This document shows, piece after piece, positions 2,550 through 17,128 of a DNA stretch of 64,000 nucleotides (within the stretch, counting starts at the first letter, position 1; the number at the start of each line of letters is the position of its first letter). The position numbers and the translations under genes were made by a program. Origin of the DNA: Acidobacteriota bacterium (GTDB lineage: Bacteria > Acidobacteriota > UBA6911 > RPQK01 > JAJDTT01); contig OZ242374.1 of the NCBI GenBank assembly GCA_965209055.1, positions 3,936,001 to 4,000,000 of the forward strand. Reading direction: 5' to 3'. The notes under the pieces were generated by a model. That model was not told where the DNA came from. It saw nothing but the letters and a program-made list of their open reading frames with translations, and searched no databases.

Positions 2550-5500
2550 TCAGAAGTAAAACTTCAGGGCCAACTGGATCTGCCGGGCGGCCAGCGTTTG
2601 GGCCAGGACGCCAAAGCCGGCGGTTCCGTAGAGGAGAGTCTGCTGCCTCGCGTTGACCACAAAGTTGGGCCGGTTGGTGGCGTTGAAGGCTTCCACCCGG
2701 GCCTCCAGCCGTTGAGTCTCGGCCAGACGGAAGGTCCGGCGCAGGGAGATGTCCAGGTTGAAGAGGCCGGGGGCCTCGACGACGCCGCGGCCGGAGTTTC
2801 CATATTCAAACGCTGCCGGCAGAGCGAACGCGCTGGTGTCGAACCAGCGGGCGGGAGTCCGCTCGTGGCCGGGCAGATTCGCGTCCCGGATGCGGTCCGG
2901 CCACTGGGACGCTTCCGACCCGGCGTCCAAGGGGTCGCCGGGCAGAGAGACCGTGCGCCAGCCGCCCTCCTGGAAATTGGCGATGGCCCGGATCGACCAT
3001 CCCCTCAACAACTGTGAGGCCAAGCCGCTCTGGAGCAGAGTCCGGTTGGGGCCAAAAGGCAGATCGAATCCGCCCGAAAGCATCAAACGCACCGGAATAT
3101 GGAAGTCCGCCACTCCCCGGGTCGCCTCCAGAGGCAGATTGCGGGACCGGTAAATTCGCCGGGAAGTGTATCCGGTCGTTCCCCCTCCGGTCTGAATCAG
3201 GCGCGACCAGCTCAATGAGGCCAGCAGGTACAGGCCGTCGGCGCCCGCGGCCTTTTCCACCTGGAAGTGCATGCCCTGGTACCAGGAATCGCCGGCTGCA
3301 AACGGGAAATAAACCGCTTGAAGATGAGGCCAAGGCCGCCGAAGCTGCCGGTCTCCGGTCCCCGGAACCGCGTCGTTCCAGGAGACCGTCTCCAGGAGAT
3401 CGGTCGATCGGGAGCCATGGTAGCCGGTGTCCAGCAGCCAGCGGGAAGTGAATTCGTGCTGGAGGCTGAGGCCCCAGGAATGGGTCCGGGACAAGGGCAG
3501 GGGAGTCTGGAATCCGTAGTGGTCGGGAACGGCCGCGTCCCGGTTCTCGTCGGGAAACGGGTCCGACAAGCGCAGGGAAGGGATCTCCAGAGGGCTGTTG
3601 AAAATGAGCCGTTCGGCTCCGGGCCGGGGATTCCGGCTCAGGCGGAGAATCATGTTCAGGTCCGGCTCGTTGCCATGAAGACCGTATCCGGTGCGCAGAA
3701 CGGTCTTGTCCGCCAGGCGAAGCGACAGGCCCAGGCGCGGCAATATTCCGTCCAGAGGGTTCCATCGGACCAGTGGATAGTTGGGTTGGAAGCGGCCCGT
3801 TTCCCAAGGTTTCAGATCCAGCTCGAGCAAGGCGGGGACCGTCTGTCCGGTCAGGGGATCCAGGTTCGACATGAAGCCCCGCCTTTCCCTCCATGGCAGC
3901 CGCAGCTCGTAGCGCAGGCCCAGGTTCAGCGTCAGCCGGGGGCCGGCCTTCCAGGTGTCCTGCAGGTAGAGGTAGTAGCTGTCCTGATGGAATCGCCCCC
4001 GGGAGCCCTCCCCTCCCAAACGGCTTTGAGACACGTAGCCCAGCAGAAAATCGGCGAAACCGTTGCCCGTATACCGGTCGAAGAAGTTGAACCGGCTGCG
4101 ACGGGACGTCACGTAAAGGTTGTAGTGCCGGCGGAAGTGGATGCCGGTTTTCAGGGAATGGTCTCCTTCCACCACCGTCAGGTCTTGATTCGCCTGCCAG
4201 TTGCCCAGGCTGCTGGGGCCGAGGAAGGAATAGTCGCCGATTCTGGTGTAACCCTGGATCTCGACGATGGGCACCCCGATTCGATCCACGTCGCTCTGCA
4301 GGAGTTCCCGAATTCCCAGATCCAACTCCCTGGCGTGGGAGGATATCCGGGACTTGTAGGGACGGCGGAACCAATGGAGGCTGGTCACGGCCTGGACTCT
4401 CGGGCTCAGGCTGCGAGTGTGGGAAAGGGACTGTCCCAATGTGGCCAAGGGGTGGCGGGTGGAGAAGATGCTGATGGGCTGGGTCGAGGTCCAGTGGTTG
4501 GTGTCCAGGACGAAACGTCCGGCCCAACGGCTCACGTCGGATTGTTTCACGTCGATGCGGGCGATGACCTGCGAATTGTCCAAGGGACTGTGGGAGTCGG
4601 GACTGGTGAAGTTCAGGGCTCCGGGTGTGTTGGGTTCGGGCCAGTAACGGAGGAGTTTCAAGGCGACGGGGTCCAGCCGATTTGCCGGGATCCGGTTTTC
4701 CGGGAAAGAGCCTCCCGTCAACGGGTCCCGGATGGGAACGGCGAACCGGCCCTGTTTTTCGCCGGCAGTCGGGACCACTCCGGTGAGAGGCTTGGTCTCC
4801 CGGATCGCACGCAACTGGTAGGAGACGAAGAACCAGGCCCGGTCCCGCCCGTTCAGCAGGCCGGGAAAAAGAAGGGGTCCTCCGAGAGTGGCCCCCAACT
4901 GGTTGCGCTTGAACTCCGCCTTTCGCTGCTCGAAGAAATTGCGGGCGTCCAGGTTGTCGTTCCGGTGAAACCAGAACCAGCCGCCGTGGAATTCGTTTGT
5001 GCCGCTCTTGGTCACCGCCACGATCTGGCCTCCGGGCCGGATGCCGAATTCCGCGGAATAGAGCCCGGTCTTGACATCGAATTCCCTGAGGGCGTCGGTG
5101 CTGGCGTTGAAGGAGGGGGTTCCGTCGCCGTGAGTGAAGAGGGTGCCGTCGATGAAGATCAGGTTGTCCTTGCGCCTCATGCCCAACACTTTGACGCTGC
5201 GGCTGCGGCTTTCGTGGCTGGTCGCGGCCCCGGCCGCCAAGGTGACCAACTGGCCCACGTCACGGGTATTGACCGGCATGCTCTCCAGCTTTTCCTGGTC
5301 GATCAGTTGCCCCCGGTCCTCCCGGCCGGTCCCCGCCAGCACCGTACCGCTGCGGATCGACTGCCGGATCCCGGGATCTCCGGGGACCAGGAGAAAATCT
5401 TCCTCACGAATCTGTTCCACGAGAAGCCGAATGTGGGTTCGGACCTGGGTTTCGTAGCCTGGGAGCGACGCCGTAATCTCGTAGTGGCCGGGAGGCAGAC

Positions 5501-5777
5501 CGCTTCGCCGGTAGTTTCCGTTGGCGTTGGTCAGCAGCAGGAAGGCCTCGTTGGTGTCGACGCGGTGGATTGCCACCTCAACTCCGGCCGCGGCCTCGCC
5601 GTTTTTCTTGCCCACGTGCCCCACCAGGGTTCCGGTGCCCATCTGGGCCAGAGCCTCACCGGGACTCGAGAAGAGAAAGGCGGGCAGTAGAGCCAGGAGC
5701 CGGAGCTGCTGCGCGCGCCGGCGGACGAACGCCGCTGCACGACCGGAGCGCTGCGTAAACCGCATCTGGGGAATCAT
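2550..5777 (-). CDS. TonB-dependent receptor, Oar-like, with carboxypeptidase-regulatory-like N-domain
   Basis: TNANGNY...GHYEITASLPGY N-domain; YSAEFG, TKSGTNEFHG, NLDARNFF, YLQDTWK, LNLGLRYE; ends RQIQLALKFYF. Confidence 0.92.
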   Translation of the reverse strand: MIPQMRFTQRSGRAAAFVRRRAQQLRLLALLPAFLFSSPGEALAQMGTGTLVGHVGKKNGEAAAGVEVAIHRVDTNEAFLLLTNANGNYRRSGLPPGHYEITASLPGYETQVRTHIRLLVEQIREEDFLLVPGDPGIRQSIRSGTVLAGTGREDRGQLIDQEKLESMPVNTRDVGQLVTLAAGAATSHESRSRSVKVLGMRRKDNLIFIDGTLFTHGDGTPSFNASTDALREFDVKTGLYSAEFGIRPGGQIVAVTKSGTNEFHGGWFWFHRNDNLDARNFFEQRKAEFKRNQLGATLGGPLLFPGLLNGRDRAWFFVSYQLRAIRETKPLTGVVPTAGEKQGRFAVPIRDPLTGGSFPENRIPANRLDPVALKLLRYWPEPNTPGALNFTSPDSHSPLDNSQVIARIDVKQSDVSRWAGRFVLDTNHWTSTQPISIFSTRHPLATLGQSLSHTRSLSPRVQAVTSLHWFRRPYKSRISSHARELDLGIRELLQSDVDRIGVPIVEIQGYTRIGDYSFLGPSSLGNWQANQDLTVVEGDHSLKTGIHFRRHYNLYVTSRRSRFNFFDRYTGNGFADFLLGYVSQSRLGGEGSRGRFHQDSYYLYLQDTWKAGPRLTLNLGLRYELRLPWRERRGFMSNLDPLTGQTVPALLELDLKPWETGRFQPNYPLVRWNPLDGILPRLGLSLRLADKTVLRTGYGLHGNEPDLNMILRLSRNPRPGAERLIFNSPLEIPSLRLSDPFPDENRDAAVPDHYGFQTPLPLSRTHSWGLSLQHEFTSRWLLDTGYHGSRSTDLLETVSWNDAVPGTGDRQLRRPWPHLQAVYFPFAAGDSWYQGMHFQVEKAAGADGLYLLASLSWSRLIQTGGGTTGYTSRRIYRSRNLPLEATRGVADFHIPVRLMLSGGFDLPFGPNRTLLQSGLASQLLRGWSIRAIANFQEGGWRTVSLPGDPLDAGSEASQWPDRIRDANLPGHERTPARWFDTSAFALPAAFEYGNSGRGVVEAPGLFNLDISLRRTFRLAETQRLEARVEAFNATNRPNFVVNARQQTLLYGTAGFGVLAQTLAARQIQLALKFYF

Positions 5778-5897: not shown

Positions 5898-7271
5898 TCA
5901 GTCAAAGAGATGGGCCAGGATGAGATCTCGGACTCCGGACGCCGGGACGCCGCCGTCGGGGACAAGTCCGGGTTCCGTGCTCAGGAAAACCGGTCCCTGA
6001 TTCGGATCTTCCGTGGGCCTGCCGTGGGAACCCTGGACCAGGTTTGCGTCCAGCGGGATGAGGTCCATGAGGTAGCGGAAGCCCAGCGCCTTCTGCAACA
6101 GTCTCAGTCCGACCTTGAGGAAGGGAAGCCGGATCCCCGGGTCCACGAAAAGTTCCGCGGGATCGTAGCCCGGCTTGCGGTGGATGTCCACGGTGCGGGC
6201 GAAATCGGGCGCCGACTTATCGTCGAGCCAGTAGTAGTAGGAGAACCACTTGTCGGCGTGGCTGATGGCCACCAGGTCTCCCGACCGCCGGTGATCGAGC
6301 CCCAATTCCCGCTGGTCCTCCCGGTCCAGGATCCGCTCGATGCCCGGAACCTGCTCCAGCAGTTTTCGGACCTGGGACCGGTGGGCCGGGTCCCGAACGT
6401 AGACGTGGGCGATCTGGTGATCTGCCACGGCGAAGGCGGGGCTGGCGCCCGGGTCCAGGATCTCCAGCCCCAGCTCCGGCCGGACGCGAATCCATCCGGC
6501 CTCGCGAAGGACCCGGTTGATGTGGATGGCGCCGGCTACAGGGGTGATCCCATACTCGGAGAGCACGATGACCCGCGTGTCCCGTTCCCGGAAGTAGTCC
6601 AGCAATCGGCCGCAGACGGCGTCGATTTCCCGGACGTCCTGGTGGACGCCGGGATGACCCGGTCCCAACCGCTGGAGGTTATAGTCCAGATGCGGCAGGT
6701 AGATGAGGGTCAGGGCGGGCCGGTGCCACTCCCAGACCCGCCGGCCCGCCCGGGCGATCCATTGGCTGGAGGCGATGCCGGCGCGGGGACCCCAGAAATC
6801 GAAGAACGGAAAGGGTCCGATGTCCGACTCCAGGCGCTGGGCCAGGTCGGCCGGGTGGGAGTAGATGGCCGGGATCTTCCTGCCGTCGGCCGGGTACATG
6901 GGACGCGGGGTCACGCTCCATTCGGCGCTGCTGTACATGTTGTACCACCAGAAGAGCTTGGCGCAGGTGACGCGGGGGTCGCGCCGACGGGCGGTTTCCC
7001 AGACCTTCTCTCCCGAAACCAGACGGTTGGATTGCCGCCAGAACCAGACCTCGGACAGATCGCGAAAATACCATCCGTTTCCCACGATGCCGTGGCCGGA
7101 GGGGGGGAGGCCGGTCAGGAAGGTGCTCTGGACGGTGGAGGTGACGGCCGGAGTCACCGTGCGCAGGGACCGGATGGCGCCGTTTTGCGCCAAGGCGCTC
7201 AGGTGGGGCGTGTCCGGTCCCAGGAGGGCCCGGGTGAGTCCGACGACGTTGATAACCGCGGTGCGGTGCAC
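5898..7271 (-). CDS. eboF: EboF-like alkaline phosphatase / nucleotide pyrophosphatase family protein
   Basis: VINVVGLT, PAVTSTVQSTFLTG, HGIVGNGWYFRD, YLPHLDYNLQR, LSEYGI, VADHQIAHVY, APDFARTVDIHRKPGYDP, GSHG. Same strand as eboA and eboB. Confidence 0.88.
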   Translation of the reverse strand: MHRTAVINVVGLTRALLGPDTPHLSALAQNGAIRSLRTVTPAVTSTVQSTFLTGLPPSGHGIVGNGWYFRDLSEVWFWRQSNRLVSGEKVWETARRRDPRVTCAKLFWWYNMYSSAEWSVTPRPMYPADGRKIPAIYSHPADLAQRLESDIGPFPFFDFWGPRAGIASSQWIARAGRRVWEWHRPALTLIYLPHLDYNLQRLGPGHPGVHQDVREIDAVCGRLLDYFRERDTRVIVLSEYGITPVAGAIHINRVLREAGWIRVRPELGLEILDPGASPAFAVADHQIAHVYVRDPAHRSQVRKLLEQVPGIERILDREDQRELGLDHRRSGDLVAISHADKWFSYYYWLDDKSAPDFARTVDIHRKPGYDPAELFVDPGIRLPFLKVGLRLLQKALGFRYLMDLIPLDANLVQGSHGRPTEDPNQGPVFLSTEPGLVPDGGVPASGVRDLILAHLFD

Positions 7272-7333: not shown

Positions 7334-7939
7334 TCACGTGGCGTCCGTTCGCTTGAGACTGCCGAGCAATCGCTGCAGACCCGCGACGACCTCGCGGTGA
7401 GCCTTTCCGGGGTCCCCGGCCGAGGCGATCATCAGAGCTCCCTCGCTGATCGCGCCGAGAAGCAGGTGGGCCATCGCTCGTACCGGCAGAGGCTTCATCC
7501 TTTCCGCTTTCATGATCGCCTCGAGGCCCCGACTCAGTAATCCCAGTCCGTATTCGGCTTCGACCGTCCGCCAGCGTTCGACACCGAGTACGGCAGGCGC
7601 ATCCAGGAGCAGAATCTGCCGGATTCCCGGCTCGGTGCAAGCATCGAGAACGGCCAGATACCCAGCCTCGAGACGCGCCCAAGGCTCCGCTTCGGCGTCC
7701 ACCGCCGCCTGGATGTGCCCGGCCATCTCGCGCTCCGACGCCTCCACGACGGCGACGAAAAGCGCCTTCTTGTCCCGAAACTGATGATAGAGGGCGCCGC
7801 GGGTGACGCCGGCTCGACGGACGATCTCCTCCGTACCCGTCCCCGCATAGCCCTTCGCTTCAAAAAGTTTCCGCGCTACGCGGACGATCTCTCCGCGCGT
7901 CTTCTCGGACTGAAGGGCTTTTTTGGTCTTTACATGCAT
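7334..7939 (-). CDS. TetR/AcrR family transcriptional regulator
   Basis: HTH: ARKLFEAKGYAGTGTEEIVRRAGVTRGALYHQFRDKKALF; C-terminal LLDAPAVLG. Start taken at ATG 7939 (MHVKTKK) rather than the ORF-track 7999. Confidence 0.93.
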   Translation of the reverse strand: MHVKTKKALQSEKTRGEIVRVARKLFEAKGYAGTGTEEIVRRAGVTRGALYHQFRDKKALFVAVVEASEREMAGHIQAAVDAEAEPWARLEAGYLAVLDACTEPGIRQILLLDAPAVLGVERWRTVEAEYGLGLLSRGLEAIMKAERMKPLPVRAMAHLLLGAISEGALMIASAGDPGKAHREVVAGLQRLLGSLKRTDAT

Positions 7940-7974
7940 ACAGTCTGTATGTATAATGCGTACAGGCTGTATGC
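7929..7974 (+). promoter_or_regulatory. Sigma70-type promoter of the biosynthetic operon overlapped by two palindromic operators
   Basis: TTTACA (7929-34)-17 nt-TATAAT (7952-57). Palindromes CATACAG-T-CTGTATG (7937-51) and GCGTACAG-G-CTGTATGC (7958-74). GGAG RBS at 8001 before ATG 8011. Confidence 0.8.
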
Positions 7975-8010
7975 TATCGCAAGCGGAGTCAGGAATCAAC
8001 GGAGTTATCG

Positions 8011-9876
8011 ATGATGAATGGATCTGTGTCCGGTGTGGTCATTGCCGCCATCAGCGAGGTCGTGCCCGATCTCGAGGTGAGCAATGAGTTCTTGCTTCAA
8101 GAGGGACGGCTGGTTCGGCCGCGCGCCCAGCGCGCCCTGGAGAAAATGGGCGTGGAAGGCCGAAGGCAATTCTCGGCCGAGCATTCGGATCCGATGGAAC
8201 TGCTTGAGGTCTGCGCCCGGCGATGCCTCGACCCTTACGGACCGGACGAAATCGGTCTGATCGCCACTTCCACCTGCAGCATCAAACGGCCCTCAGCCCG
8301 TCTCGTTCCCAATCCGGCATCCGATCTTCGCGTGCGCCTGGGATTGCCCAATGCGGGCACGTTGAGCTCGTATGGCGGCTGCACCTCTTTTCTCGGTCTC
8401 CTCGGCGCGGCTGCGGACTTTGTTCGGCTGAATCAACTCGCTGCGTTCGTCGGCGTCGTCGAATTGGATAACCGGAATGTTCCCACTGGGGTTCCCCGCT
8501 ATCTATTTGGCGATGGATGCGTAGGAGTGCTGCTGAGACCATCCGAGGAGCCGGATTCGGGATTCGTCGCGTACGACCGGCGCACGGGAACCGATGGCAG
8601 CGCAGAGTCCGATCGCATTGAGCGCGATATGAATGAGGGGCTCGTTTTCCAAAGCTGGGGGCGCTATGCCAACGCGCTATACATGAATGGAGCGGCAGTA
8701 AACAATTTCATCCAAAAAAAGGTCGCCCCGGCGCTGATAGGTTTTCTCGAGCGGTGCAACGCTTCTCCGGACAGTGTCGACGTCTTCGTCCCGCATCAGG
8801 CCAACCTGAGGGCCATTCGGTTTTTGCATCGCCGGTGCCTTCCCAACTCTCTGCTGGTGGAAACGGTCCGGCGCCGAGGAAACAACGCGGGAGCCAGCCT
8901 CGGCATCGCGATGGCCAAGGCCTTCACCGGTCTGATCCAGCGGGGCCAGCGGATCCTGCTGAGTGCCTTTGGATCCGGACCCAACATCGTCAATATGCTG
9001 TACCACGCAACCGGGCAGGAGGTTGTTGTCCGCGAGACGCTTACGCCAAGTGATGCCGGCGCCGGTAACCGGCCGACCGAATGGTTGGTGTCCCCGGGGA
9101 ATGCGGCTCCCCGTTATGCGCTGCTCACCCCGCCGGTTTTCGACCGCTACGAAGGAACCGGGATCCGGGTCCTGGTGGAGGATCCATGGCAGATCGACTT
9201 TTTTACCCGAGTCCTGCCCGGCCCCTGTTTGCTCATCGGCGCCAGCGCTCCCGCATCCGAGACCGAGTTCCGGCTGCAGCGGTGGGCAAACGGTCGCAAG
9301 CGAGAGCGGACAATTCGAACGGAGCCCGAGGTTGCGGGCGACTACGACGATAAGATTCAGGGTTTGCTCCTTCGCGTTTCCCCATTCGATGCGCCCTCCC
9401 TTCTGGACGATCTGCGCCAGAAGGGACGGATCGATCGTTGGATGGTCCACAAGCGACACGAGGCCAACGTCATGTTGTCCGGTGCTGTGCAGGTAGGAGG
9501 GCTCATTCATTTCCTGGCCTCGCCCCTGACAGAGGAGTTCCGGTTTGATCACGAGTCGGGGCATCTACAGGGGATGGCCCTGATGGAGATTGTTCGCCAG
9601 GCAATGATCGCTTCTTCGCATGTCATCGGAGTGCCCCGGGGGTGGGGGATGGTGATGACGAGTTTCCACGCGGATTACCACAAATTTGTCGACGGCGCAG
9701 CGCCCATCATTGTGAGGACGCTTCCCGGTCTCGGTAAGAGTTGGGCGCGACGAATGGAGGACTGGCAAAACAAACGTCCACATCGCGCCTGGGGTGTCGC
9801 CCAGGTCTTCCAGAACGGCCAATGTTGCGTTAGCGCCCACGTGACCGGAATGCTGCGGCCGTCGCCTGCCAAATGA
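8011..9876 (+). CDS. Fusion: FabH/KSIII-type ketoacyl synthase plus C-terminal AfsA-like hot-dog domain
   Basis: KSIII triad motifs GGCTSF, VPHQAN and GNNAGAS, plus LFGDG and AFGSG. C-terminal VHKRHEANVMLS and FDHESGHLQGMALMEIVRQA match AfsA/ScbA-type motifs. Confidence 0.82.
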   Translation: MMNGSVSGVVIAAISEVVPDLEVSNEFLLQEGRLVRPRAQRALEKMGVEGRRQFSAEHSDPMELLEVCARRCLDPYGPDEIGLIATSTCSIKRPSARLVPNPASDLRVRLGLPNAGTLSSYGGCTSFLGLLGAAADFVRLNQLAAFVGVVELDNRNVPTGVPRYLFGDGCVGVLLRPSEEPDSGFVAYDRRTGTDGSAESDRIERDMNEGLVFQSWGRYANALYMNGAAVNNFIQKKVAPALIGFLERCNASPDSVDVFVPHQANLRAIRFLHRRCLPNSLLVETVRRRGNNAGASLGIAMAKAFTGLIQRGQRILLSAFGSGPNIVNMLYHATGQEVVVRETLTPSDAGAGNRPTEWLVSPGNAAPRYALLTPPVFDRYEGTGIRVLVEDPWQIDFFTRVLPGPCLLIGASAPASETEFRLQRWANGRKRERTIRTEPEVAGDYDDKIQGLLLRVSPFDAPSLLDDLRQKGRIDRWMVHKRHEANVMLSGAVQVGGLIHFLASPLTEEFRFDHESGHLQGMALMEIVRQAMIASSHVIGVPRGWGMVMTSFHADYHKFVDGAAPIIVRTLPGLGKSWARRMEDWQNKRPHRAWGVAQVFQNGQCCVSAHVTGMLRPSPAK

Positions 9877-10529
9877 GCTGCATCAAGCGACAGGCGCCGG
9901 TGCTCTTCCTGATTGGGGGTATTCCCTGCCTGTTGGGAATCACAGTCCACCGCCTGCTCACACAGCCGTGGCCTCCTCACTGGGTGACGCTGGTTGTGGC
10001 AGGGATTTATCTGGGTTGGCTGCTTGCCGAAGCGGGCATCACGATGCGGGAACCGAGGAAGGAAGAGGCAACCGACGATCGGAGCAGTCTCGGACTATAC
10101 GCAACGGCGCGATGTGCGACTGTTCTCGGGACCGTTCTTTCGCCGCCCATGGAGGGAACGGTATCGGTGCGGTGGGTCCTGGTAGTCGCCGGAGTCACGA
10201 TCATGATCCTGGGCGTGGGCTTACGTCTGGCCGCGATCCGGAAACTGGCCGCCACCTACAGTCACAGCGTTCGGATCCCCTCTGACGGCATCGTCCGAAG
10301 CGGCGTCTATCGCTATCTTCGGCATCCCGCCTATACGGGGATGGTACTGGGTAATCTCGGATTCGTTGTCGCCCTGGCCAGCCCATGGGGAATGGCGGCA
10401 TTGCTCGGGCTGCTCCTACCCGCCGTGACTTATCGGATCCTGGTCGAAGAGTCGCTATTGCTTTCTACGCTGCCCGAGTATCGGGAGTTCGCAAAGGCGA
10501 GAAAGCGCCTCATCCCATTCCTATGGTAA
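9873..10529 (+). CDS. Isoprenylcysteine carboxyl methyltransferase (ICMT/PEMT) family membrane methyltransferase
   Basis: Several TM helices; GVYRYLRHPAYTG, RILVEESLL, YREF...RLIPFLW; ATGA overlap with the upstream stop. Confidence 0.9.
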   Translation: MSCIKRQAPVLFLIGGIPCLLGITVHRLLTQPWPPHWVTLVVAGIYLGWLLAEAGITMREPRKEEATDDRSSLGLYATARCATVLGTVLSPPMEGTVSVRWVLVVAGVTIMILGVGLRLAAIRKLAATYSHSVRIPSDGIVRSGVYRYLRHPAYTGMVLGNLGFVVALASPWGMAALLGLLLPAVTYRILVEESLLLSTLPEYREFAKARKRLIPFLW

Positions 10530-11503
10530 TGAACGGTTGCGACTTGGTCCTGATCGGCGCAACGGGGTACGTCGGCACCGCCGTCCGGCGCAAACTGATC
10601 GAGGCTTGTCCCCGGAGCAGGGTGCGCGTCCTGGCCCGAAAGCGGCCGCCTCAGGGCACGCCGGCTATCCGGTGGATCCGATGTTCTCTCCCCGAAGTGC
10701 CGGATGGTGCGTTTCCACGCCGGCCCTACTTGCTCGTACATCTCGCCACCAGGCAGATCGATCCGGATGGCACAGGGTTTGTGGCCACAAACGTCACCGG
10801 TACGCTGAACCTGCTCCGCAAGTCAGATGCCAACCTTCGCGGCGTCGTGTACGGCAGCTCGGCGTCCGTGTACGGGCAGGGGCCCTTGCGGCCGGCGTTG
10901 GAGGTGGATCGTCCGAACCCGGTTACACCCCTGGCCAGCAGTCGAAGGGGGGCCGAGAAGGTGATTCTCAAAATGGCGGCAGAACGAGACTTCGGTGCGT
11001 ACCTTTGTCGGCCTCGCTTCATTATTGGCGGTGGGGATCGTTTTCTGGTTCCGCTGCTGGTTCGACTCGCCAGGATGCGACTGGCTGGTAGCCAAGCCGT
11101 GTCCTATTCCTTCATTCACGTTGACGACTACGCCAAAGTCATTCTCTTCATGCTGCAGAGGCTGGCAACCATACACGGGAATGGATCCAATCCGGAACGG
11201 CTGGCCGTCAACGTCGCCTACAGATCCGCACTCCCGCAGGAACAGATCCTGTCCACCGTACGTGGTATGGCGGGGCTTCCGGGTCCCCTGGTGAAATTGC
11301 GCTGCCCGCGTTCCCTTCTTGCCGGTCTCAGAGCGATGCCGGGTCGACGGCCGGACCGGCTGGCTACCCGCCTCGAGTTGCTGATGCAAGATCAGATTCT
11401 CTCCTGCCGCCGTCTCTCCGAGATGGGTTGTGACATTCCATCGCGTTCTCCCCAAGGACGGCTTGAGGTCGCCATTCGCCAATACCAAGAGGTCGGAAAA
11501 TGA
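10529..11503 (+). CDS. NAD-dependent epimerase/dehydratase (extended SDR) family protein with atypical active site
   Basis: LIGATGYVG Rossmann motif, HLA, NVTGT, SSASVYG, IHVDD. TAATG coupling gives the start at 10529. The YxxxK position reads LASSR. Confidence 0.8.
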   Translation: MNGCDLVLIGATGYVGTAVRRKLIEACPRSRVRVLARKRPPQGTPAIRWIRCSLPEVPDGAFPRRPYLLVHLATRQIDPDGTGFVATNVTGTLNLLRKSDANLRGVVYGSSASVYGQGPLRPALEVDRPNPVTPLASSRRGAEKVILKMAAERDFGAYLCRPRFIIGGGDRFLVPLLVRLARMRLAGSQAVSYSFIHVDDYAKVILFMLQRLATIHGNGSNPERLAVNVAYRSALPQEQILSTVRGMAGLPGPLVKLRCPRSLLAGLRAMPGRRPDRLATRLELLMQDQILSCRRLSEMGCDIPSRSPQGRLEVAIRQYQEVGK

Positions 11504-14163
11504 CCAGGACCGCCACTCCCTTGTTCGTTGTCGACTATCGGTCGAAGCTGCTGCAGGCTGCGGTGGGGCCAAAACTTGCGAATCTTGCTGCATTACACGC
11601 CGCCGGGTTTGCGGTTCCCCCCTTCTTCTGCCTGACGACGCACGCCTATGAGGCGGTGCTGTCTGCCCTCCGGCCCCAGGTCGAGGGTCTGTTCCGGGGT
11701 TGCGGCTCGTTTGACGCCGTGGCGGTACAGTCCTTGTCACGGAGAATCCAGCGGATGTTCCTCGACGTCCGCCTGCCCAACGGATTGGAAGAAGCGATCA
11801 AGGCTTCGTTTGAGGATCTCTTCGAGTACGGGGAGTTCGTGGCAGTTCGCGCGTCCGTGGCAGGGCACCGCGCCGAGGAGAGTGAAGACAGCGCGCACCA
11901 TCCCATGGCCGGCATGAGTGATTCGTTCCTGTTTGTTGGCGCCACGCAACTGGTTGCCAAAATCCGTCGCTGTTGGGCCTCGGGGTACGCCCCTGAAGCG
12001 ATCACCTATAGACGGCGGCTCGGGATCGCCCCTCACGGGTTCTCCGTTGCAGTGGGGGTACAGCGCATGGTCGCGTCGGCGCGATCCGTAGTGGCCTTCT
12101 CCTGCGACCCGCGGACAACTCTGAGGCAGACCGTCATCGCGGCAGGCTACGGAGTGGGGGAAGGCGTCGTCCAAGAGAGAGTGGGTGTGGATCACTTTTT
12201 CGTCAATCGAAAGTCCAGGGCCATCACCATTGAGATTGGTCCCAAGACGACAAAGCTGGTAAGGAACCCCGACGGCGACGGGTCCCCGCTCGTTGCCGAA
12301 CCCGTCCCCGTCAAGGCGGTGCGGGAACCCTGTTTGACCACGCGCGAGATTCTGAAACTCGACGCTATCGCACAAAAGGTGGAATGCCTGCTGGGATCGC
12401 CCCAGGACATCGAAGGCGCGTACGATTCGAAAGGCCGCCTCTATCTGCTGCAGAGCCGCCCGGTGCACCTGGACCATCGCACCATCCGAGTGTGGAGTAG
12501 CGCCAACGTCTCCGAGAGCTTTCCAAACGTTACGACCCCGCTGACGTACAGCATGGCGCGGCTCTTTTACCGCACCGTATTCTACGACTTCATCCGGCGC
12601 AGCGGGTGCCCGCCCGGCGTCCTTTACGAACAACTCCCCGACTTCGAACGCATGCTCGGCTTCATCAACGGTCGTGTCTACCATTCCTTGACCTACCTGC
12701 TCAGAGTGAACGGCATGGTGCCCATCGCCAAATGGTTCATAAGCGATCTGGAGGATGTGCTCGAGATGCCGGCTTCGATCGCTCAGGAGGACAGCGGTGG
12801 TGGAGGACTGTGGGCGACCTGCCGCGCGTCAATGATTGCCGGGCGCTGCGCGATGCGCTTGGGAAGGGAGTTTCGCGGGTTTGAAAGGTGGTGGCGGGAA
12901 TACCTCGGAGACCTCCGTCAGATCGAACTCGACGGCGCCGATCCGATGGTGGCGATGGCCACGTTTCGTGAAGTATGGAAGCAAGTCGGCCGCTGGTGGG
13001 GACTGACGCTGATCAACCACTGGTTGATCAACACCTACTTTGCCGCCGCCCGGAAACTGATCGGGAAATGGAATCTTGAGATCAACCTGAGCGATCTACT
13101 GTGCCGGGAGGATAACGCCGGCTCCCGTGCGATCACTTCCGCCATAAGGATCGCGGAACTCATTCGGGCCGATCCTCGTTCGGTAGAACTGTTCGAATCC
13201 ATGGACGATCAGGCGGTGTGGTCGGCCATCTTGACCCAGCCCGATTTTCGAGAGCTTCGAGGGTTAATCCAGCACCATCTCCGCAAGTACGGTGATCGTG
13301 GGGTAGCCGAACTCAACATGGAGGCCCCCGGCTTTCGACGCGAGCCCAAGCTGTTCGTCCGGACTTTGCGATCCTGCGTCTCCAAGGGACTGGTTGCGGA
13401 TGAGCTGGCGCACTCGGAGAAACAGATACGCGACCGCGCCAAAGAGCAGGTCTGGGCCGCACTGGGACGCCGCTCGATCCGCAGCTTCCTGTTTCTGGGG
13501 CTGATACACAGGCTCCGGATCACCGTCAACCAGCGGGAGGACAGCCGTTTCTGGCGCGGTGAGCTCTTCGGGTACTGCAAAGACATTTTTGACGTTCTCG
13601 CCAGCGCGCTGGTGAAGCAAGGTGCTCTGGACCGTCGTGCCGATGCCGTGTTTCTGACCCATGGGGAGATCTTCGGGTTCTTCGACGGCACGGGGGTGAC
13701 CGGCGACTTGCAAGCCTTGGTGGGAATTCGCCGGAGGGAGAAAGAGCGCCATGAACTCGATGCCGGCCCTCCTCGGGACTTTACGACCTGCGGACCCGTG
13801 CAGCCGGCAATCCCGAAAAACAGATCCGCGCTTGGGACCGACCGGGTCCTGCGCGGCATCGGATCGAGCGCCGGCGTCGTGGAGGGGCGCGCCAGGATCG
13901 TCCTCGACCCCACCAATGTCTGCATCGAGGCCAACGACATACTGGTGGCGCGCGAAACGGATCCCGGTTGGTTATTCCTCATGCTGGCGGGCCGGGGGAT
14001 TGTCGTTGAACGTGGCAGCATGTTGTCGCATACGGCGATCAGTGGACGGAAATTTGGCATTCCGACCGTTGTCGGGGTTCCGGACGCGACGCGTGTCATT
14101 CCCGAAGGGGCACGCGTCAGGCTGGATGGTGCGGGCGGTACGGTCACCATCGTGGAGGGCTGA
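11500..14163 (+). CDS. PEP-utilising / rifampin-phosphotransferase-like ATP-dependent phosphotransferase
   Basis: N-terminal ATP-grasp (VGPKLANL, AVRAS, ED, VQRMV, GVGEGVV, PQDIEG, LQSRP); large central helical domain; C-terminal His-swivel (TDPGW, GSMLSHTAISGRKFGIP). Confidence 0.88.
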   Translation: MTRTATPLFVVDYRSKLLQAAVGPKLANLAALHAAGFAVPPFFCLTTHAYEAVLSALRPQVEGLFRGCGSFDAVAVQSLSRRIQRMFLDVRLPNGLEEAIKASFEDLFEYGEFVAVRASVAGHRAEESEDSAHHPMAGMSDSFLFVGATQLVAKIRRCWASGYAPEAITYRRRLGIAPHGFSVAVGVQRMVASARSVVAFSCDPRTTLRQTVIAAGYGVGEGVVQERVGVDHFFVNRKSRAITIEIGPKTTKLVRNPDGDGSPLVAEPVPVKAVREPCLTTREILKLDAIAQKVECLLGSPQDIEGAYDSKGRLYLLQSRPVHLDHRTIRVWSSANVSESFPNVTTPLTYSMARLFYRTVFYDFIRRSGCPPGVLYEQLPDFERMLGFINGRVYHSLTYLLRVNGMVPIAKWFISDLEDVLEMPASIAQEDSGGGGLWATCRASMIAGRCAMRLGREFRGFERWWREYLGDLRQIELDGADPMVAMATFREVWKQVGRWWGLTLINHWLINTYFAAARKLIGKWNLEINLSDLLCREDNAGSRAITSAIRIAELIRADPRSVELFESMDDQAVWSAILTQPDFRELRGLIQHHLRKYGDRGVAELNMEAPGFRREPKLFVRTLRSCVSKGLVADELAHSEKQIRDRAKEQVWAALGRRSIRSFLFLGLIHRLRITVNQREDSRFWRGELFGYCKDIFDVLASALVKQGALDRRADAVFLTHGEIFGFFDGTGVTGDLQALVGIRRREKERHELDAGPPRDFTTCGPVQPAIPKNRSALGTDRVLRGIGSSAGVVEGRARIVLDPTNVCIEANDILVARETDPGWLFLMLAGRGIVVERGSMLSHTAISGRKFGIPTVVGVPDATRVIPEGARVRLDGAGGTVTIVEG

Positions 14164-15059
14164 TGCCGGCGGCACCTGTCCGTAGTCTGATTCGCTTCGT
14201 CTGGCGTCGGTATCCCCCCCTTCCGTATGTGGCCTGGGTATCCCTTTGGACCTGTGCGCTCGAGGGTCTCCTCGAACGACCCGAGCGCCTCGTCGACAGG
14301 CTGGATGTTCCCTTTGTCTTGACCGGGCTCAGCCTGTTCCTCGTCTCCTTCTTCATGCGGGTCGTCGATGAGATCCGCGACTACGAATACGATCGGGTGC
14401 ACCATCCTGAACGGGAGTTGGCCGCCGGCGTCGTGTCGTTCAGCGACCTGTACCTGCTGCTGGCGGTCACCGCCGTGATCCTTCTGGCTCTAAATGCGGG
14501 GAGGCCCGTCGGGGCCGGGCTGCTCGGCGCGATCATGGCGTATTCTCTCTTCTTGTGGTGGCTGGAAGTGCGTTGGCGCTTCTATCGCGAGCGGATGTTC
14601 TTCGCCATCGGCGTGGCCATTCAACTGCATGTGTTGCAGGCGATCTACGTTTGGGTTGTTCGTCCGGACTCAACGGCAGCCGCGCCGGCCATGAGCGTGG
14701 TCTTCGCAATCGCCTCCTTCGTTCTCGCCTACCTGCACTGGGAGGTGGCCCGGAAGACCCGCTGGCCCACGGCGGGCACTCCAGCGGCGAAGCTCTATTC
14801 AACGGAAGTAGGCGCCGTAGCCAGCAGTGCGATCTCCTTGGGGCTGATGACCGCTGCCGTAACGTTTCTCTCGTTCATTCTGCAGCCGTGGCAGCAGTGC
14901 GGCGCCGGCGTCGGTTGGCTCGTTCTGGCTCCTTGGGTTTGTTCGCTGCTCAATACGCTTGGATTCCTGTTGAGGACTCCCGGCGAGCATCGGCTGGGAC
15001 CGGGCGCGGCGATCGCCTATTTTTCATTTCTGGGAATTGTTGTCTTGGGTACTCTTTAG
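14163..15059 (+). CDS. UbiA-family membrane prenyltransferase
   Basis: Multiple TM helices; Asp-rich motif RVVDEIRDYEYDRVHHPERELAAG; WEVARK...LYS; TGATG coupling. Confidence 0.78.
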   Translation: MPAAPVRSLIRFVWRRYPPLPYVAWVSLWTCALEGLLERPERLVDRLDVPFVLTGLSLFLVSFFMRVVDEIRDYEYDRVHHPERELAAGVVSFSDLYLLLAVTAVILLALNAGRPVGAGLLGAIMAYSLFLWWLEVRWRFYRERMFFAIGVAIQLHVLQAIYVWVVRPDSTAAAPAMSVVFAIASFVLAYLHWEVARKTRWPTAGTPAAKLYSTEVGAVASSAISLGLMTAAVTFLSFILQPWQQCGAGVGWLVLAPWVCSLLNTLGFLLRTPGEHRLGPGAAIAYFSFLGIVVLGTL

Positions 15060-15272
15060 ATTCTATCGCGCTGGCGCGCATCGTGGATGGAATACGTATC
15101 GGGTCAGGCGCTAGGAGTCTGCGCCGTAGAAATGATCGTAGCGAGAAAGTGGAGAATCGAGGACAGATTTTCACGATTTTGAGGTGCATAGTTGTTCTAT
15201 TCGCCGAGAAATCGGGGAAATATGGACCGATTCGCCGCTTTCGCAGTAGATTGATTTCTGCGGAGCAGGCTC

Positions 15273-16160
15273 CTAGGTCTCGACGACCGGGGTCTGGCCG
15301 CCTCGCAGGACCGTACTTCCTCCGTAGAACTCCGTCTGGTCGATGCTGGGCCGGGTGTCGATGCCGGCCAGGTCCAGCCGCTGGCTCTGGGAAAAGAAGT
15401 GGGCGGGATTGTCCCAGACGATGGTTCGGATGGTCCGGAGCGTGATGCCGCTCTCCAACATCAGGTCGGTGGTCTTGGGGACCTTCAGGGGATCGCTGAT
15501 GCCCCAATCCGCGGCGCTGTTGATGAGGATCCGCTCGCTGCCGTACTCCTTCACCAGCTTCACCATCCGGACCTCGTCCATCTTGGTGTGGGGATAGATG
15601 GTGTGGCCGGCCCAGCAGCCGGTGTCCAGCACCAGGGGCAGCGTCTCTTCCGTGTTGTGGTCGATGAGGGCCCTCTCCTCGGGGAAGCCGACGTTGCGGA
15701 TGAGGTCCAAGGAACGGATGGTGCCCCGCTTCTTGTCCCGGTGGGGCGTATGCACCAGGACCGGCAGATCCATTTCCATGGCCAGTTCCAACTGGCGGGC
15801 GAAGATGCGCTCCTCCGCATCGGTCTGATCGTCGTACCCGATCTCCCCCACGGCGACCACGCCATCTTTCTGCAGGTAGCGGGGAAGCAGCGAGAGCACT
15901 TCCTCAGCCAGCCTGGGGTTGTTGGCCTCCTTGGGGTTCAGTCCGATGGTGCAGAAATGACGGATGCCGAATTGCGACGCCCGGAACCGCTCCCAGCCCA
16001 CGAGGCTGTTGAAGTAGTCGATGAAGGAGCCGACGTTGGTTCTGGGCTGCCCCAACCAGAAGGAGGGCTCGACGATGACGAGGATCCCGTTTTGGGCCAT
16101 GGCCGAGTAGTCGTCCGTGGTCCGGGAGGTCATGTGAATGTGAGGATCGAAGATCTTCAT
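15273..16160 (-). CDS. eboB: EboB-like TatD-family hydrolase
   Basis: DPHIHMTSRTTDDY, EPSFWLGQPRT, GLNPKEAN, GEIGYD, VHTPHRDKKRGT, IDHN, NSAADWGISDPL; directly downstream of eboA. Confidence 0.92.
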   Translation of the reverse strand: MKIFDPHIHMTSRTTDDYSAMAQNGILVIVEPSFWLGQPRTNVGSFIDYFNSLVGWERFRASQFGIRHFCTIGLNPKEANNPRLAEEVLSLLPRYLQKDGVVAVGEIGYDDQTDAEERIFARQLELAMEMDLPVLVHTPHRDKKRGTIRSLDLIRNVGFPEERALIDHNTEETLPLVLDTGCWAGHTIYPHTKMDEVRMVKLVKEYGSERILINSAADWGISDPLKVPKTTDLMLESGITLRTIRTIVWDNPAHFFSQSQRLDLAGIDTRPSIDQTEFYGGSTVLRGGQTPVVET

Positions 16161-16169
16161 GGTGGAAAT

Positions 16170-17030
16170 TCATTGGACCATCTTGGCCAACGAGGCGTCA
16201 ATAGCGGCCAGAACGCGGTCGTCGGATTCAACCGTTCTCCGCTGCTCGAGCTGCGCGCGGCTTCGTTGGTCCCGGGCGTATCCCAGAGCCCGCGCAGCCC
16301 AATAGCGGTGACGGGAATTGCCCTGCTGCAGATAGGGGTAGATGCGCCCGATCCTCTCGGGAGCGATGCGCGGCGCCACGGCCCACCAGATGTCGGGAGG
16401 AACGTCGCGTCCGGCCGCCTCCCGTTCGCTGGCGTAGTCGTCGGCCATCCGGGAGAGCTCCGGATTGAAGCGGGCTTCCAGCCCCATGATGCGATCCATG
16501 CGGATCGCGTTGAACAGGCTCTTGAGCACCATCTGGTTGAAGTTCAGTTCCGGGAAGTGCGCCGCAGGGTAGGGATTTTCGCAGGCGATGGCTTCCAGCA
16601 GGGGAACGATGTTGGTCCGGCAGGCGTCGACGGCCGCGTCCAGGAACCGACTGCGTTGGGGAAGCAGATTGATTCCCCGGAGCCAGCTCTGCTGCTCGCG
16701 GCTGTCACCCTGCCGATAGCATTCCAGCACCGTTTCGGAATATTCGTCCGGAGGCAGATGGGCAATTCTCAGCAGGAGGATGGCCCGTCCCAGTTCGTCC
16801 AGGCCCCAGTGATCGAGGGGAAGATCGGGCCGCAAGGTGCTCCAGCGGAGAGCTTCTTCCGGGTCCTGGGCAAGAGCTTTCTTTCCTAACCAGAAGGAGG
16901 CTCCCGCGTAGTTGCCCAGCAGCCGGTTCAGATCGACAGGAGCCGCCGTGCTTCGGCAGGCCTTTTGAAACCAGCTCCAGCCGCGGGAGGAGGCGCGGGC
17001 CCTTAGAATCCGGGTCAGAAAATCGATCAC
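16170..17030 (-). CDS. eboA: EboA domain protein with a C-terminal HEAT-like extension
   Basis: WGLDELGRAILL, GDSREQ, DACRTN, NPYPAAHF, FNQMVLKSLF, DYASEREAAGRDVP. Confidence 0.88.
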   Translation of the reverse strand: MIDFLTRILRARASSRGWSWFQKACRSTAAPVDLNRLLGNYAGASFWLGKKALAQDPEEALRWSTLRPDLPLDHWGLDELGRAILLLRIAHLPPDEYSETVLECYRQGDSREQQSWLRGINLLPQRSRFLDAAVDACRTNIVPLLEAIACENPYPAAHFPELNFNQMVLKSLFNAIRMDRIMGLEARFNPELSRMADDYASEREAAGRDVPPDIWWAVAPRIAPERIGRIYPYLQQGNSRHRYWAARALGYARDQRSRAQLEQRRTVESDDRVLAAIDASLAKMVQ

Positions 17031-17128
17031 GGTTCGTGGATCCAGCGAACGAATTATGGCGAAAACGGGATGTTATGGTCCCCAAGACGGAAATTCTTGT
17101 CAAACGCGGTCCAACCCCGTTTCTTGCC

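Follow-up and report, generated by a model that had tools for sequence, protein, structure and literature searches.

Salinipostins, cyclipostins and cyclophostin are rare natural phosphotriesters, reported as antimalarials and as inhibitors of hormone-sensitive lipase and acetylcholinesterase, and cyclophostin has the same phosphotriester ring motif as salinipostin (bioRxiv 10.1101/2020.10.11.335315). As of 2020, according to the same preprint, neither cyclophostin nor cyclipostin had a known gene cluster, and we found no later paper naming one. Here we describe a five-gene cassette with a divergent TetR-family gene, at positions 7334 to 15059 of a 64,000-nucleotide stretch of an Acidobacteriota genome (assembly GCA_965209055.1, contig OZ242374.1, positions 3,936,001 to 4,000,000; this whole stretch is called the window below), which gives a compact, testable route into the question of how the phosphotriester ring is completed once the first steps are done. 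The cassette probably acts through an AfsA-derived phospho-butenolide or phospho-butanolide core that is worked on by relatives of the salinipostin proteins Spt1 and Spt7. Our preferred reading, held at slightly less than an even chance, is that the five genes form an operon under TetR repression which makes, by a five-step route, a phosphorylated gamma-butyrolactone akin to salinipostin and cyclophostin; that its end product is a cyclic methyl phosphotriester is possible but doubtful.

The salinipostin (spt) cluster encodes Spt1 (PF00391 + PF01326), an AMP-binding enzyme (Spt2), an acyl carrier protein (ACP; Spt4), a PF07993 protein (Spt5), a nucleoside diphosphate kinase (NDK; Spt6), a UbiA protein (Spt7), a PF00296 protein (Spt8) and an AfsA protein (Spt9) (PMC8209734; bioRxiv 10.1101/2020.10.11.335315), together with Spt3, a hypothetical protein of about 557 residues from a 1,674-bp gene (supplement of PMC8209734). 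These sources describe 91 spt-like clusters, from actinomycetes only, each with spt1, 5, 6, 7 and 9 (PMC8209734; bioRxiv 10.1101/2020.10.11.335315). Spt9 and Spt6 have been shown in vitro, Spt6 converting butanolide phosphate to the pyrophosphate; the authors propose that the gamma-butyrolactone pyrophosphate then expels phosphate as it closes to a cyclic phosphodiester, followed by ester formation with a fatty alcohol, and no isoprenoid figures in the proposal as given there (bioRxiv 10.1101/2020.10.11.335315). For direct comparison the spt locus was found in a Salinispora genome by the published spt9 primer stretch, which matched five Salinispora loci, while a 21-base stretch of the published spt6 primer had no match in the genome contigs. 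A Pfam scan of the Salinispora locus confirmed the spt family make-up.

AfsA itself belongs to the A-factor pathway, where it joins a beta-ketoacyl thioester to dihydroxyacetone phosphate, the ester cyclises spontaneously to a butenolide phosphate and BprA reduces it; bprA sits immediately downstream of afsA in S. griseus (PMC11877004). In gladiostatin/gladiofungin biosynthesis of Burkholderia gladioli, AfsA-like domains are fused to a polyketide synthase (PKS) for chain release (PMC7756379; PMC7756420), and gladiostatin-type fusions were the only ones we found in the literature on AfsA fused to polyketide synthases.

The window locus consists of the following features.

7334 to 7939, minus strand: TetR-family repressor gene (Pfam TetR_N 6.9e-18, TetR_C_41 6.2e-29).
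7929 to 7957, plus strand: operon promoter TTTACA-17-TATAAT, 11 of 12 consensus matches, in the 72-bp divergent intergenic region.
About 7937 to 7951 and about 7960 to 7972: two predicted palindromic operator-like sites, the first overlapping the promoter and the second 3' of it.
8011 to 9015, plus strand: ketosynthase III (KSIII, FabH-like) domain of gene 1, residues 1-335, from the FabH-model alignment and matches to FabH structures in the PDB.
9016 to 9441, plus strand: middle region of gene 1, about residues 336-477, with no family match.
9442 to 9876, plus strand: AfsA hotdog domain of gene 1 (Pfam AfsA, PF03756), residues 478-613, then the stop codon.
9873 to 10529, plus strand: gene 2, ICMT/PEMT-family integral-membrane S-adenosylmethionine (SAM)-dependent O-methyltransferase (Pfam ICMT, PEMT).
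10529 to 11503, plus strand: gene 3, atypical extended short-chain dehydrogenase/reductase (SDR) of bprA-position type (Pfam Epimerase 6.6e-18).
11500 to 14163, plus strand: gene 4, three-domain, Spt1-like phosphoenolpyruvate (PEP)-utiliser enzyme of 887 aa (Pfam PPDK_N 1.6e-62, PEP-utilizers 1.5e-21).
14163 to 15059, plus strand: gene 5, UbiA-fold integral-membrane protein of the Spt7 subfamily, 298 aa (AlphaFold, Foldseek, NCBIfam).

The open reading frames (ORFs) on the plus strand run from 8011 to 9876, 9873 to 10529, 10385 or 10529 to 11503, 11500 to 14163 and 14163 to 15059, and that on the minus strand from 7334 to 7999. All four gene junctions overlap: the letters read AAATGAGC at 9873 (ATGA), GGTAATGAAC at 10527 (TAATG), AAATGACC at 11500 (ATGA) and GCTGATGCC at 14161 (TGATG). 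The five genes from 8011 to 15059 are translationally coupled, with the TetR gene (7334-7939, minus strand) facing the other way. For that gene ATG 7939 is the more likely start than TTG 7999, because the start region is conserved in five relatives; the SDR starts at ATG 10529 or 10523, not at 10385. The promoter is the best-scoring of the promoter-like sites, of which there are two in 8.1 kb against 1.7 ± 1.5 in shuffled sequence, a count not above chance, so that the case for it rests on site quality, place and conservation. Both of its hexamers and both palindromes (CATACAGtCTGTATG and TACAGgCTGTA) are kept in the window and in the five relatives. A terminator scan gave seven sites against 7.3 ± 2.6 in shuffles, with none 3' of the last gene. 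These results bear out the preliminary description of this DNA, made from the sequence without database searches, in its account of five genes joined by overlapping stop and start codons behind one promoter and a divergent TetR gene, and also in its remark that no ACP or exporter is encoded in the cassette: because the genes overlap, there is no space inside it for an ACP, exporter or NDK gene.

Gene 4 carries the strongest link to the spt cluster, being 27.5% identical to Spt1 over its full length (E 7.7e-73). Its domain order is ATP-grasp, central domain and His swivel domain, and the swivel His (H844) is invariant. The best of 26 NCBIfam models is NF004881, which aligns over the full length at 476.6 bits, below its cut-off of 883; Salinispora Spt1 passes the same model (1449.6 bits), and two other cassette members likewise score best with it. 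The rifampicin phosphotransferase (RPH) models NF041857 (288 bits, cut-off 999) and NF000283 (226 bits, cut-off 1700) and the RedH/PigC models (256/238 bits, below their cut-offs) fit gene 4 worse than the Spt1-type model, and the label of RPH-like kinase given to it earlier is better replaced by Spt1-like. The nearest PDB structures, at about 200 bits, are ones that we take to be of RPH type.

Gene 5 is 29% identical to Spt7 over 233 aa (E 7.9e-19). It has no Pfam match, Pfam UbiA included, and its UbiA fold is recognised by NCBIfam (5.6e-9), by a family profile that matches DGGGP synthase at 1.3e-9 and by its AlphaFold model (predicted local distance difference test, pLDDT, 88.8). For that model the best Foldseek match is DGGGP synthase 6m31 (TM 0.69/0.72), and further matches are to a membrane phosphoribosyltransferase (8j8j) and the UbiA homologues 4od4/4tq3. 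In an alignment of 15 cassette proteins and Spt7, the first Asp-rich motif, R-x2-D-E-x2-D-x2-Y-D, is kept, with D69, E70, D73 and D77 invariant, and the second conserved block is F-L-H-x-E-x2-R-K in all 16 members, Spt7 included, with no Asp-rich motif there. A second Asp-rich motif is a defining feature of the canonical UbiA members that bind prenyl diphosphates. The profile of this subfamily found 149 representatives at E <= 1e-30 among 1.84 billion. At one cyanobacterial locus a canonical UbiA gene (Pfam 1e-58; L023, 5009-5893, minus strand) lies about 1 kb upstream of a cassette that holds an Spt7-like gene; neither the gene 5 protein nor Spt7 matches this canonical UbiA at E <= 0.01.

The third link is the AfsA domain, whose match to Spt9 is weak (34% over 62 aa, E 3.7e-5). 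Judged by sequence comparison, the window cassette is related to the spt cluster through these three proteins, and spt is the closest characterised system. The preliminary description had noted that the salinipostin cluster pairs an AfsA homologue with a PEP-utiliser-type enzyme; the spt papers and the Salinispora locus confirm the pair (Spt1 with PF00391 + PF01326, Spt9 as AfsA) and add Spt7 as UbiA. We also considered whether Spt3 might be a hidden ICMT; it has no ICMT match and was rejected.

Gene 1 encodes a fusion protein of 621 aa. Pfam places ACP_syn_III_C in it at 1.4e-14, and the NCBIfam FabH model NF006829 aligns over residues 8-323 with 108.9 bits (cut-off 249), TIGR00747 (FabH) giving 88.8 bits (cut-off 292, below). 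Matches to FabH in the PDB reach 7e-19. The ketosynthase is, on these scores, a divergent KSIII and no housekeeping FabH. Its Cys (GGCTSF), His (VPHQAN) and Asn (GNNAGAS) align with the active-site positions of three solved FabH chains, and these three residues are the catalytic ones in FabH. The AfsA domain matches Pfam over model positions 1-131 of 133 (E 4.2e-17, 62.9 bits, cut-off 24), its hotdog is modelled confidently (pLDDT 76-88), and F-D-H-x3-H is an invariant AfsA block in an alignment of gene 1 with 16 other AfsA proteins. It is the one AfsA domain that a search of the whole genome returned (66 bits). The middle region of about 140 residues has no Pfam match and a pLDDT below 50; it aligns solely with the N-terminal part of stand-alone AfsA-like proteins of Corallococcus, and as a second, degenerate hotdog it shows neither a Pfam match nor a confident fold. 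A word-based, length-limited search found 11 cluster representatives of the fusion protein at >= 79% identity, ten of which carry both domains, the eleventh being a 383-aa piece with AfsA only; the next-best matches below this clade are plain FabH at 27%. The KSIII-AfsA fusion and the TetR control have so far been found only in one Acidobacteriota clade.

Gene 2 matches Pfam ICMT (PF04140) at 1.9e-14 (54.3 bits, cut-off 24) and PEMT at 3.1e-12 and has hydrophobic segments, and it falls short of the protein-S-isoprenylcysteine methyltransferase equivalog (44.9 bits, cut-off 160). The SDR of gene 3 keeps GxxGxxG, and L-A-x-S-R replaces Tyr-x-x-x-Lys in all 11 aligned cassette members. The gene that directly follows a canonical Streptomyces afsA (locus L095) is 28% identical to gene 3 over 257 aa and shares the invariant columns of the cassette SDRs, with Arg for the SDR Lys and no Tyr. 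Position and likeness support a putative role as a BprA-like reductase. Its PF07993 score is below the cut-off (E 0.01, 15.5 bits, cut-off 20.1). Taken together with the AlphaFold/Foldseek comparisons, these Pfam and NCBIfam results uphold the family assignments first made from the sequence. For the SDR the family stands and the canonical ketoreductase does not, since Tyr-x-x-x-Lys is missing and the match is to a gene in the bprA position.

Close relatives of the fusion gene are present in five Acidobacteriota genomes at 84-94% identity. The TetR gene and the five genes occur in order in all five, and the flanks are common to only one of them, consistent with one cassette, as had been proposed. 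A gene 5 match at E <= 1e-10 occurs in six of 401 Acidobacteriota genomes, the window's own among them, and in two of five other genomes of the same genus. The PEP-utiliser match by tblastn falls into several pieces in two of the five close relatives (L003, 13520-16180; L004, 12341-14776), which suggests frameshifts or assembly errors.

The preliminary description had proposed a novel pathway in a phylum not known for such products; a wider search showed that neither this genome nor this phylum is alone in having the gene set. Loci were the best 80 of 298 stretches related to gene 4, from a search with an alignment of gene 4 relatives (five of the 80 being the close Acidobacteriota relatives), and their content was scored by tblastn with the window proteins and a hidden Markov model built from 15 AfsA sequences. 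The AfsA, ICMT, PEP-utiliser and UbiA-like genes lie on one strand, in that order, in 71 of the 80 loci. An ICMT homologue is present in 73, a UbiA-like homologue in 77 and an SDR homologue in 52, and in 48 loci AfsA, ICMT, SDR and UbiA-like genes all accompany the PEP-utiliser gene. The nine loci without AfsA are all cut off upstream, with no more than 4,038 bases before the PEP-utiliser gene. By record titles the loci come from about ten phyla: Acidobacteriota (with two Bryobacterales), Myxococcota, Actinomycetota, Cyanobacteria, Gamma- and Betaproteobacteria, Desulfobacterota, a Syntrophomonadaceae genome, Planctomycetota, Chloroflexi and Bacteroidota. The families were borne out when 114 neighbouring ORFs were scanned with Pfam. 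Corallococcus has the closest counterparts of the window's five proteins (37-47% identity), and its AfsA has one repeat and the same N-terminal extension as the window fusion.

The form of the AfsA gene varies between cassettes. It may stand alone (about 240-410 aa), be fused behind a type-I ketosynthase (KS) whose gene adjoins one for an AMP-binding enzyme (L038, L050, L053), form the end of a megasynthase of 2,500 aa that also contains AMP-binding, carrier, KS, AT, (weak) DH and thioesterase domains (L060), or lie near a separate KSIII (L081). These several independent unions of KS and AfsA are good comparative evidence that the AfsA substrate is a beta-ketoacyl thioester. We found no paper describing the AfsA-ICMT-(SDR)-PEP-utiliser-UbiA-like cassette, and none of six key terms is present in a 2026 review (PMC13500789). 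The cassette is a widespread family, apparently undescribed in print.

Our preferred reading, an operon for a phosphorylated gamma-butyrolactone, would run as follows. On the strength of homology and of three independent kinds of KS-AfsA fusion, KSIII would condense an acyl-CoA primer with malonyl-ACP from fatty-acid synthesis and pass the beta-ketoacyl thioester to the fused AfsA, which would esterify the chain to dihydroxyacetone phosphate, aldol closure giving a butenolide phosphate. The atypical SDR, because it resembles the gene in the bprA position, would then reduce this to butanolide phosphate, as BprA does. The Spt1-like PEP-utiliser may add a second phosphoryl group from ATP by way of its swivel His, either to the phosphate, to give a diphosphate as Spt6 does in Salinispora, or to the enolate oxygen, in the way PEP synthase acts on pyruvate. 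PEP synthases form an enol phosphate from pyruvate, and PigC-type relatives activate an oxygen by phosphorylation. The Spt7-like protein would bind the activated phosphate, by the single Asp-rich motif and the Arg-Lys motif, and close a cyclic enol phosphodiester; we infer this ring closure with the least assurance of the five steps. It lends some support that a membrane phosphoribosyltransferase (8j8j) has the UbiA fold as well. Finally, the ICMT-type enzyme may methylate the remaining phosphate oxygen with SAM, yielding a neutral methyl phosphotriester of the cyclophostin kind. The ester group of cyclophostin is a methyl. In salinipostin a fatty alcohol would fill that position, requiring Spt2 to Spt5 and a second kinase, and a methyl cap set by ICMT would explain a cassette without fatty-alcohol genes and without the second kinase. 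TetR, bound to the two palindromes over the promoter, would release the operon upon binding a ligand, perhaps the product. In 71 of the 80 loci this AfsA type is accompanied by the three additional enzymes, which argues for their action on the AfsA product. More broadly, the cassettes could be an unrecognised multi-phylum family making cyclic enol-phosphate methyl triesters (cyclophostin-like serine-hydrolase inhibitors or signals), with ICMT in place of the fatty-alcohol arm and second kinase, a generalisation that we offer as a somewhat unlikely one.

A number of observations weigh against this pathway. An Spt6 homologue (NDK, PF00334) has no match in the six window proteins, so that the only late step shown in vitro for spt is without a direct counterpart here. 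Nor are Spt1 and Spt7 themselves of proven function, and we found no paper assigning them one; no product is known for any cassette member. The AfsA part scores 30.5 bits on the ScbA/BarX model (NF041195, cut-off 200), and gene 1 has a single matched AfsA repeat where Spt9 and L095 have two. The SDR lacks the usual catalytic Tyr and was compared with a gene in the bprA position only, not with BprA itself. For the methylation, TIGR04571, by name the lipid A 1-phosphate O-methyltransferase and hence a phosphate O-methyltransferase within the ICMT family, matches gene 2 at E 0.0054 (16.5 bits, cut-off 325), which is not significant, and ICMT relatives also methylate carboxylates. Among the 80 loci, and likewise among 18, pattern-based scans of best matches, a weak means of looking, found no record titled Streptomyces lavendulae, which we take to be the cyclophostin producer. 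A 2025 screen obtained no phosphotriester from seven strains with spt-like clusters (PMC11877004).

Several of the same observations would suit other pathways. One is a conventional autoregulator system based on a butyrolactone or butenolide, in which AfsA and the BprA-like SDR would make a diffusible, phosphate-free hormone with TetR as its receptor, and the ICMT, PEP-utiliser and UbiA-like proteins would tailor or recycle the hormone, unrelated to a phosphotriester. The layout of TetR, divergent AfsA and SDR does mirror canonical Streptomyces loci such as L095, where a TetR gene, a two-repeat AfsA gene and an SDR occur together, the helix-turn-helix (HTH) region of the window TetR finds partners beside four of six canonical Streptomyces afsA loci, and the ScbR family (NF041196) is its best NCBIfam model. 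However, that match reaches only 58.3 bits, far under the cut-off of 150, and covers residues 31-107, the HTH region, and not the ligand-binding domain; the TetR gene was seen in the close relatives only, plus one weak distant match; and it is ICMT, PEP-utiliser and UbiA-like genes that go with this AfsA type in the 71 loci. Moreover, the cassette-bearing Streptomyces have canonical afsA genes of their own: in five such genomes six ScbA/BarX matches pass the cut-off, in four of the five, at 204-322 bits, while lower matches in the same genomes lie at 35-72 bits, those placed at cassette loci at 35-48. We therefore think a hormone system of this kind unlikely. Prenylation, expected in the preliminary description, would have the UbiA-like protein prenylate the core or its phosphate, the PEP-utiliser phosphorylate a hydroxyl as RPH does and ICMT methylate, to give a prenylated, methylated butenolide lipid. 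The UbiA fold with its intact first Asp-rich motif, the two integral-membrane enzymes that suggest a lipophilic substrate and the presumably RPH-type nearest structures of gene 4 (about 200 bits) would fit such a route, but H-x-E-x2-R-K replaces the second Asp-rich motif, which holds the diphosphate in canonical UbiA, in all 16 subfamily members, the cassette has no isoprenoid-precursor gene, the Spt1-type model beats the RPH model on gene 4 (476.6 against 288 bits) and the sole relative with a known product is proposed to use a fatty alcohol and no isoprenoid (bioRxiv 10.1101/2020.10.11.335315). A prenylated product is, in our judgement, decidedly unlikely.

Two further alternatives take the AfsA domain itself in another direction. 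If AfsA only acylated dihydroxyacetone phosphate and the SDR made acyl-glycerol phosphate, as in ether lipids, an unusual methylated phospholipid would result; AfsA chemistry does start with acyl transfer to dihydroxyacetone phosphate (PMC11877004), two of the enzymes are integral to the membrane and, of the solved UbiA-fold structures, the closest (6m31) is a lipid synthase from an archaeon. The patchy spread (six of 401 Acidobacteriota genomes, two of five others of the genus) speaks against a core lipid, regulation by a TetR repressor is a typical mark of accessory metabolism, and every KS partner makes beta-keto acyl chains, which close to a ring spontaneously once AfsA has acted (PMC11877004), so that a membrane-lipid pathway seems highly improbable. 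Gene 1 might, finally, be a fatty-acid module of FabH and a FabA/FabZ-type dehydratase with unrelated neighbours. AfsA is related to FabA/FabZ (PMC8209734), and Foldseek with the hotdog model returned generic thioesterase and FabZ matches only (E 8e-6 to 6e-4). Against this, the domain scores 62.9 bits on Pfam AfsA and has the AfsA-family motif, no FabA/FabZ Pfam family is found in gene 1 at E <= 0.01, and the five genes are translationally coupled and co-occur across phyla. A dehydratase, named earlier as one outcome that would overturn the proposed pathway, is scarcely credible here.

Around the cassette, a type I phosphodiesterase/nucleotide pyrophosphatase gene (5898-7271, minus strand) lies directly behind the TetR gene on the same strand, and behind it, also on that strand, a gene for a large TonB-dependent-receptor-like outer-membrane protein (2550-5777, minus strand). 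The phosphodiesterase gene was considered as a part of the system and rejected, being common to one of the five relatives only; for the same reason both genes are probably outside the cassette. On the 3' side (15273-19006) are a TatD-family hydrolase gene (minus strand), a gene for a protein with weak HEAT-repeat matches (minus strand) and one for a 656-aa alpha/beta-hydrolase-like protein whose esterase matches are all sub-threshold; these, too, are common to one of the five relatives. DNA of the window from 7900 to 15100 occurs in runs labelled 'sponge metagenome' from four studies (P2, P5, P6, P7), at 0.69 to 0.20 of sampled words, and also in what is probably the source sample; no RNA run is among the runs listed for it.

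Cassettes elsewhere have neighbours of their own. Two tandem ICMT genes accompany the type-I KS-AfsA fusion and AMP-binding enzyme at three loci (L038, 7433-8952; L050, 7595-8925; L053, 7534-8899), which suggests a second methylation or a split function. An MMPL-type transporter gene and a fatty-acid hydroxylase-family gene adjoin gammaproteobacterial cassettes (L060, 13734-16995; L027, 6310-7302), and cytochrome P450 genes adjoin actinomycete ones (L057, 13296-16659; L081, 5912-7201), L057 also having a nitroreductase gene; some spt-like clusters carry an extra nitroreductase (PMC8209734). In one Streptomyces locus (L030, 7498-8259, minus strand) a PEP phosphomutase-family gene lies directly upstream of the cassette AfsA, on the opposite strand.

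Should the broader reading hold, of a multi-phylum family making cyclic methyl phosphotriesters, the cassette would be the missing gene-cluster type for cyclophostin and a minimal five-enzyme system for solving the late steps and the roles of Spt1 and Spt7, and natural organophosphate triesters would extend far beyond actinomycetes, including Acidobacteriota with DNA in sponge metagenomes. The cassette keeps the trio of Spt1, Spt7 and AfsA and swaps the fatty-alcohol genes for one methyltransferase, in the window with five enzymes under one promoter. AfsA chemistry outside actinomycetes is in itself unsurprising, AfsA domains having been reported in 12 phyla (PMC8209734). The spread over about ten phyla would carry AfsA-based phospho-lactone chemistry beyond the actinomycetes, the limit of spt-like clusters in the 2021 survey (PMC8209734).

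Set beside the known systems, the window locus resembles the Streptomyces A-factor/SCB loci in having a divergent TetR-family gene, an AfsA gene and then an atypical SDR, and the same first two chemical steps would be expected. It differs from them in that its AfsA and TetR fall below the ScbA/BarX and ScbR cut-offs and three further enzymes are present, and in Streptomyces the cassette AfsA is a separate paralogue beside canonical afsA genes. With gladiostatin/gladiofungin it shares the fusion of a ketosynthase-bearing enzyme to AfsA and the predicted release of a beta-ketoacyl chain onto a C3 phosphate unit as a butenolide, although the partner there is a large trans-AT PKS and here a single KSIII in a 621-aa protein. 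LmtA of Leptospira, an ICMT-family enzyme that methylates lipid A 1-phosphate, shows an ICMT-fold membrane enzyme acting on a phosphate oxygen, the reaction proposed for gene 2, albeit on an unrelated substrate and with a weak, non-significant match to the window protein. RPH and the PigC/RedH ligases have the same three-domain architecture as gene 4, with ATP-grasp, central substrate and swivel His domains.

Compared with spt, the window cassette is without NDK (Spt6), the AMP-ligase, Spt3, the ACP and the thioester reductase (Spt2 to Spt5), and Spt8. An Spt5 homologue (PF07993) was not found in it, and tblastn of the SDR on the spt locus gave no match at a meaningful E; without NDK and the PF07993 reductase it lies outside the published definition of an spt-like cluster (spt1, 5, 6, 7 and 9). 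Its ICMT, its SDR of bprA-position type and the KSIII joined to its AfsA have no match in the Salinispora locus, and it has one AfsA repeat against two in Spt9, a different gene order and an occurrence well outside actinomycetes. What the two have in common is an AfsA homologue (Spt9), a PPDK_N/PEP-utiliser enzyme with the same best NCBIfam model (Spt1; NF004881) and a UbiA-fold membrane protein with the same motif set, lacking the second Asp-rich motif (Spt7).

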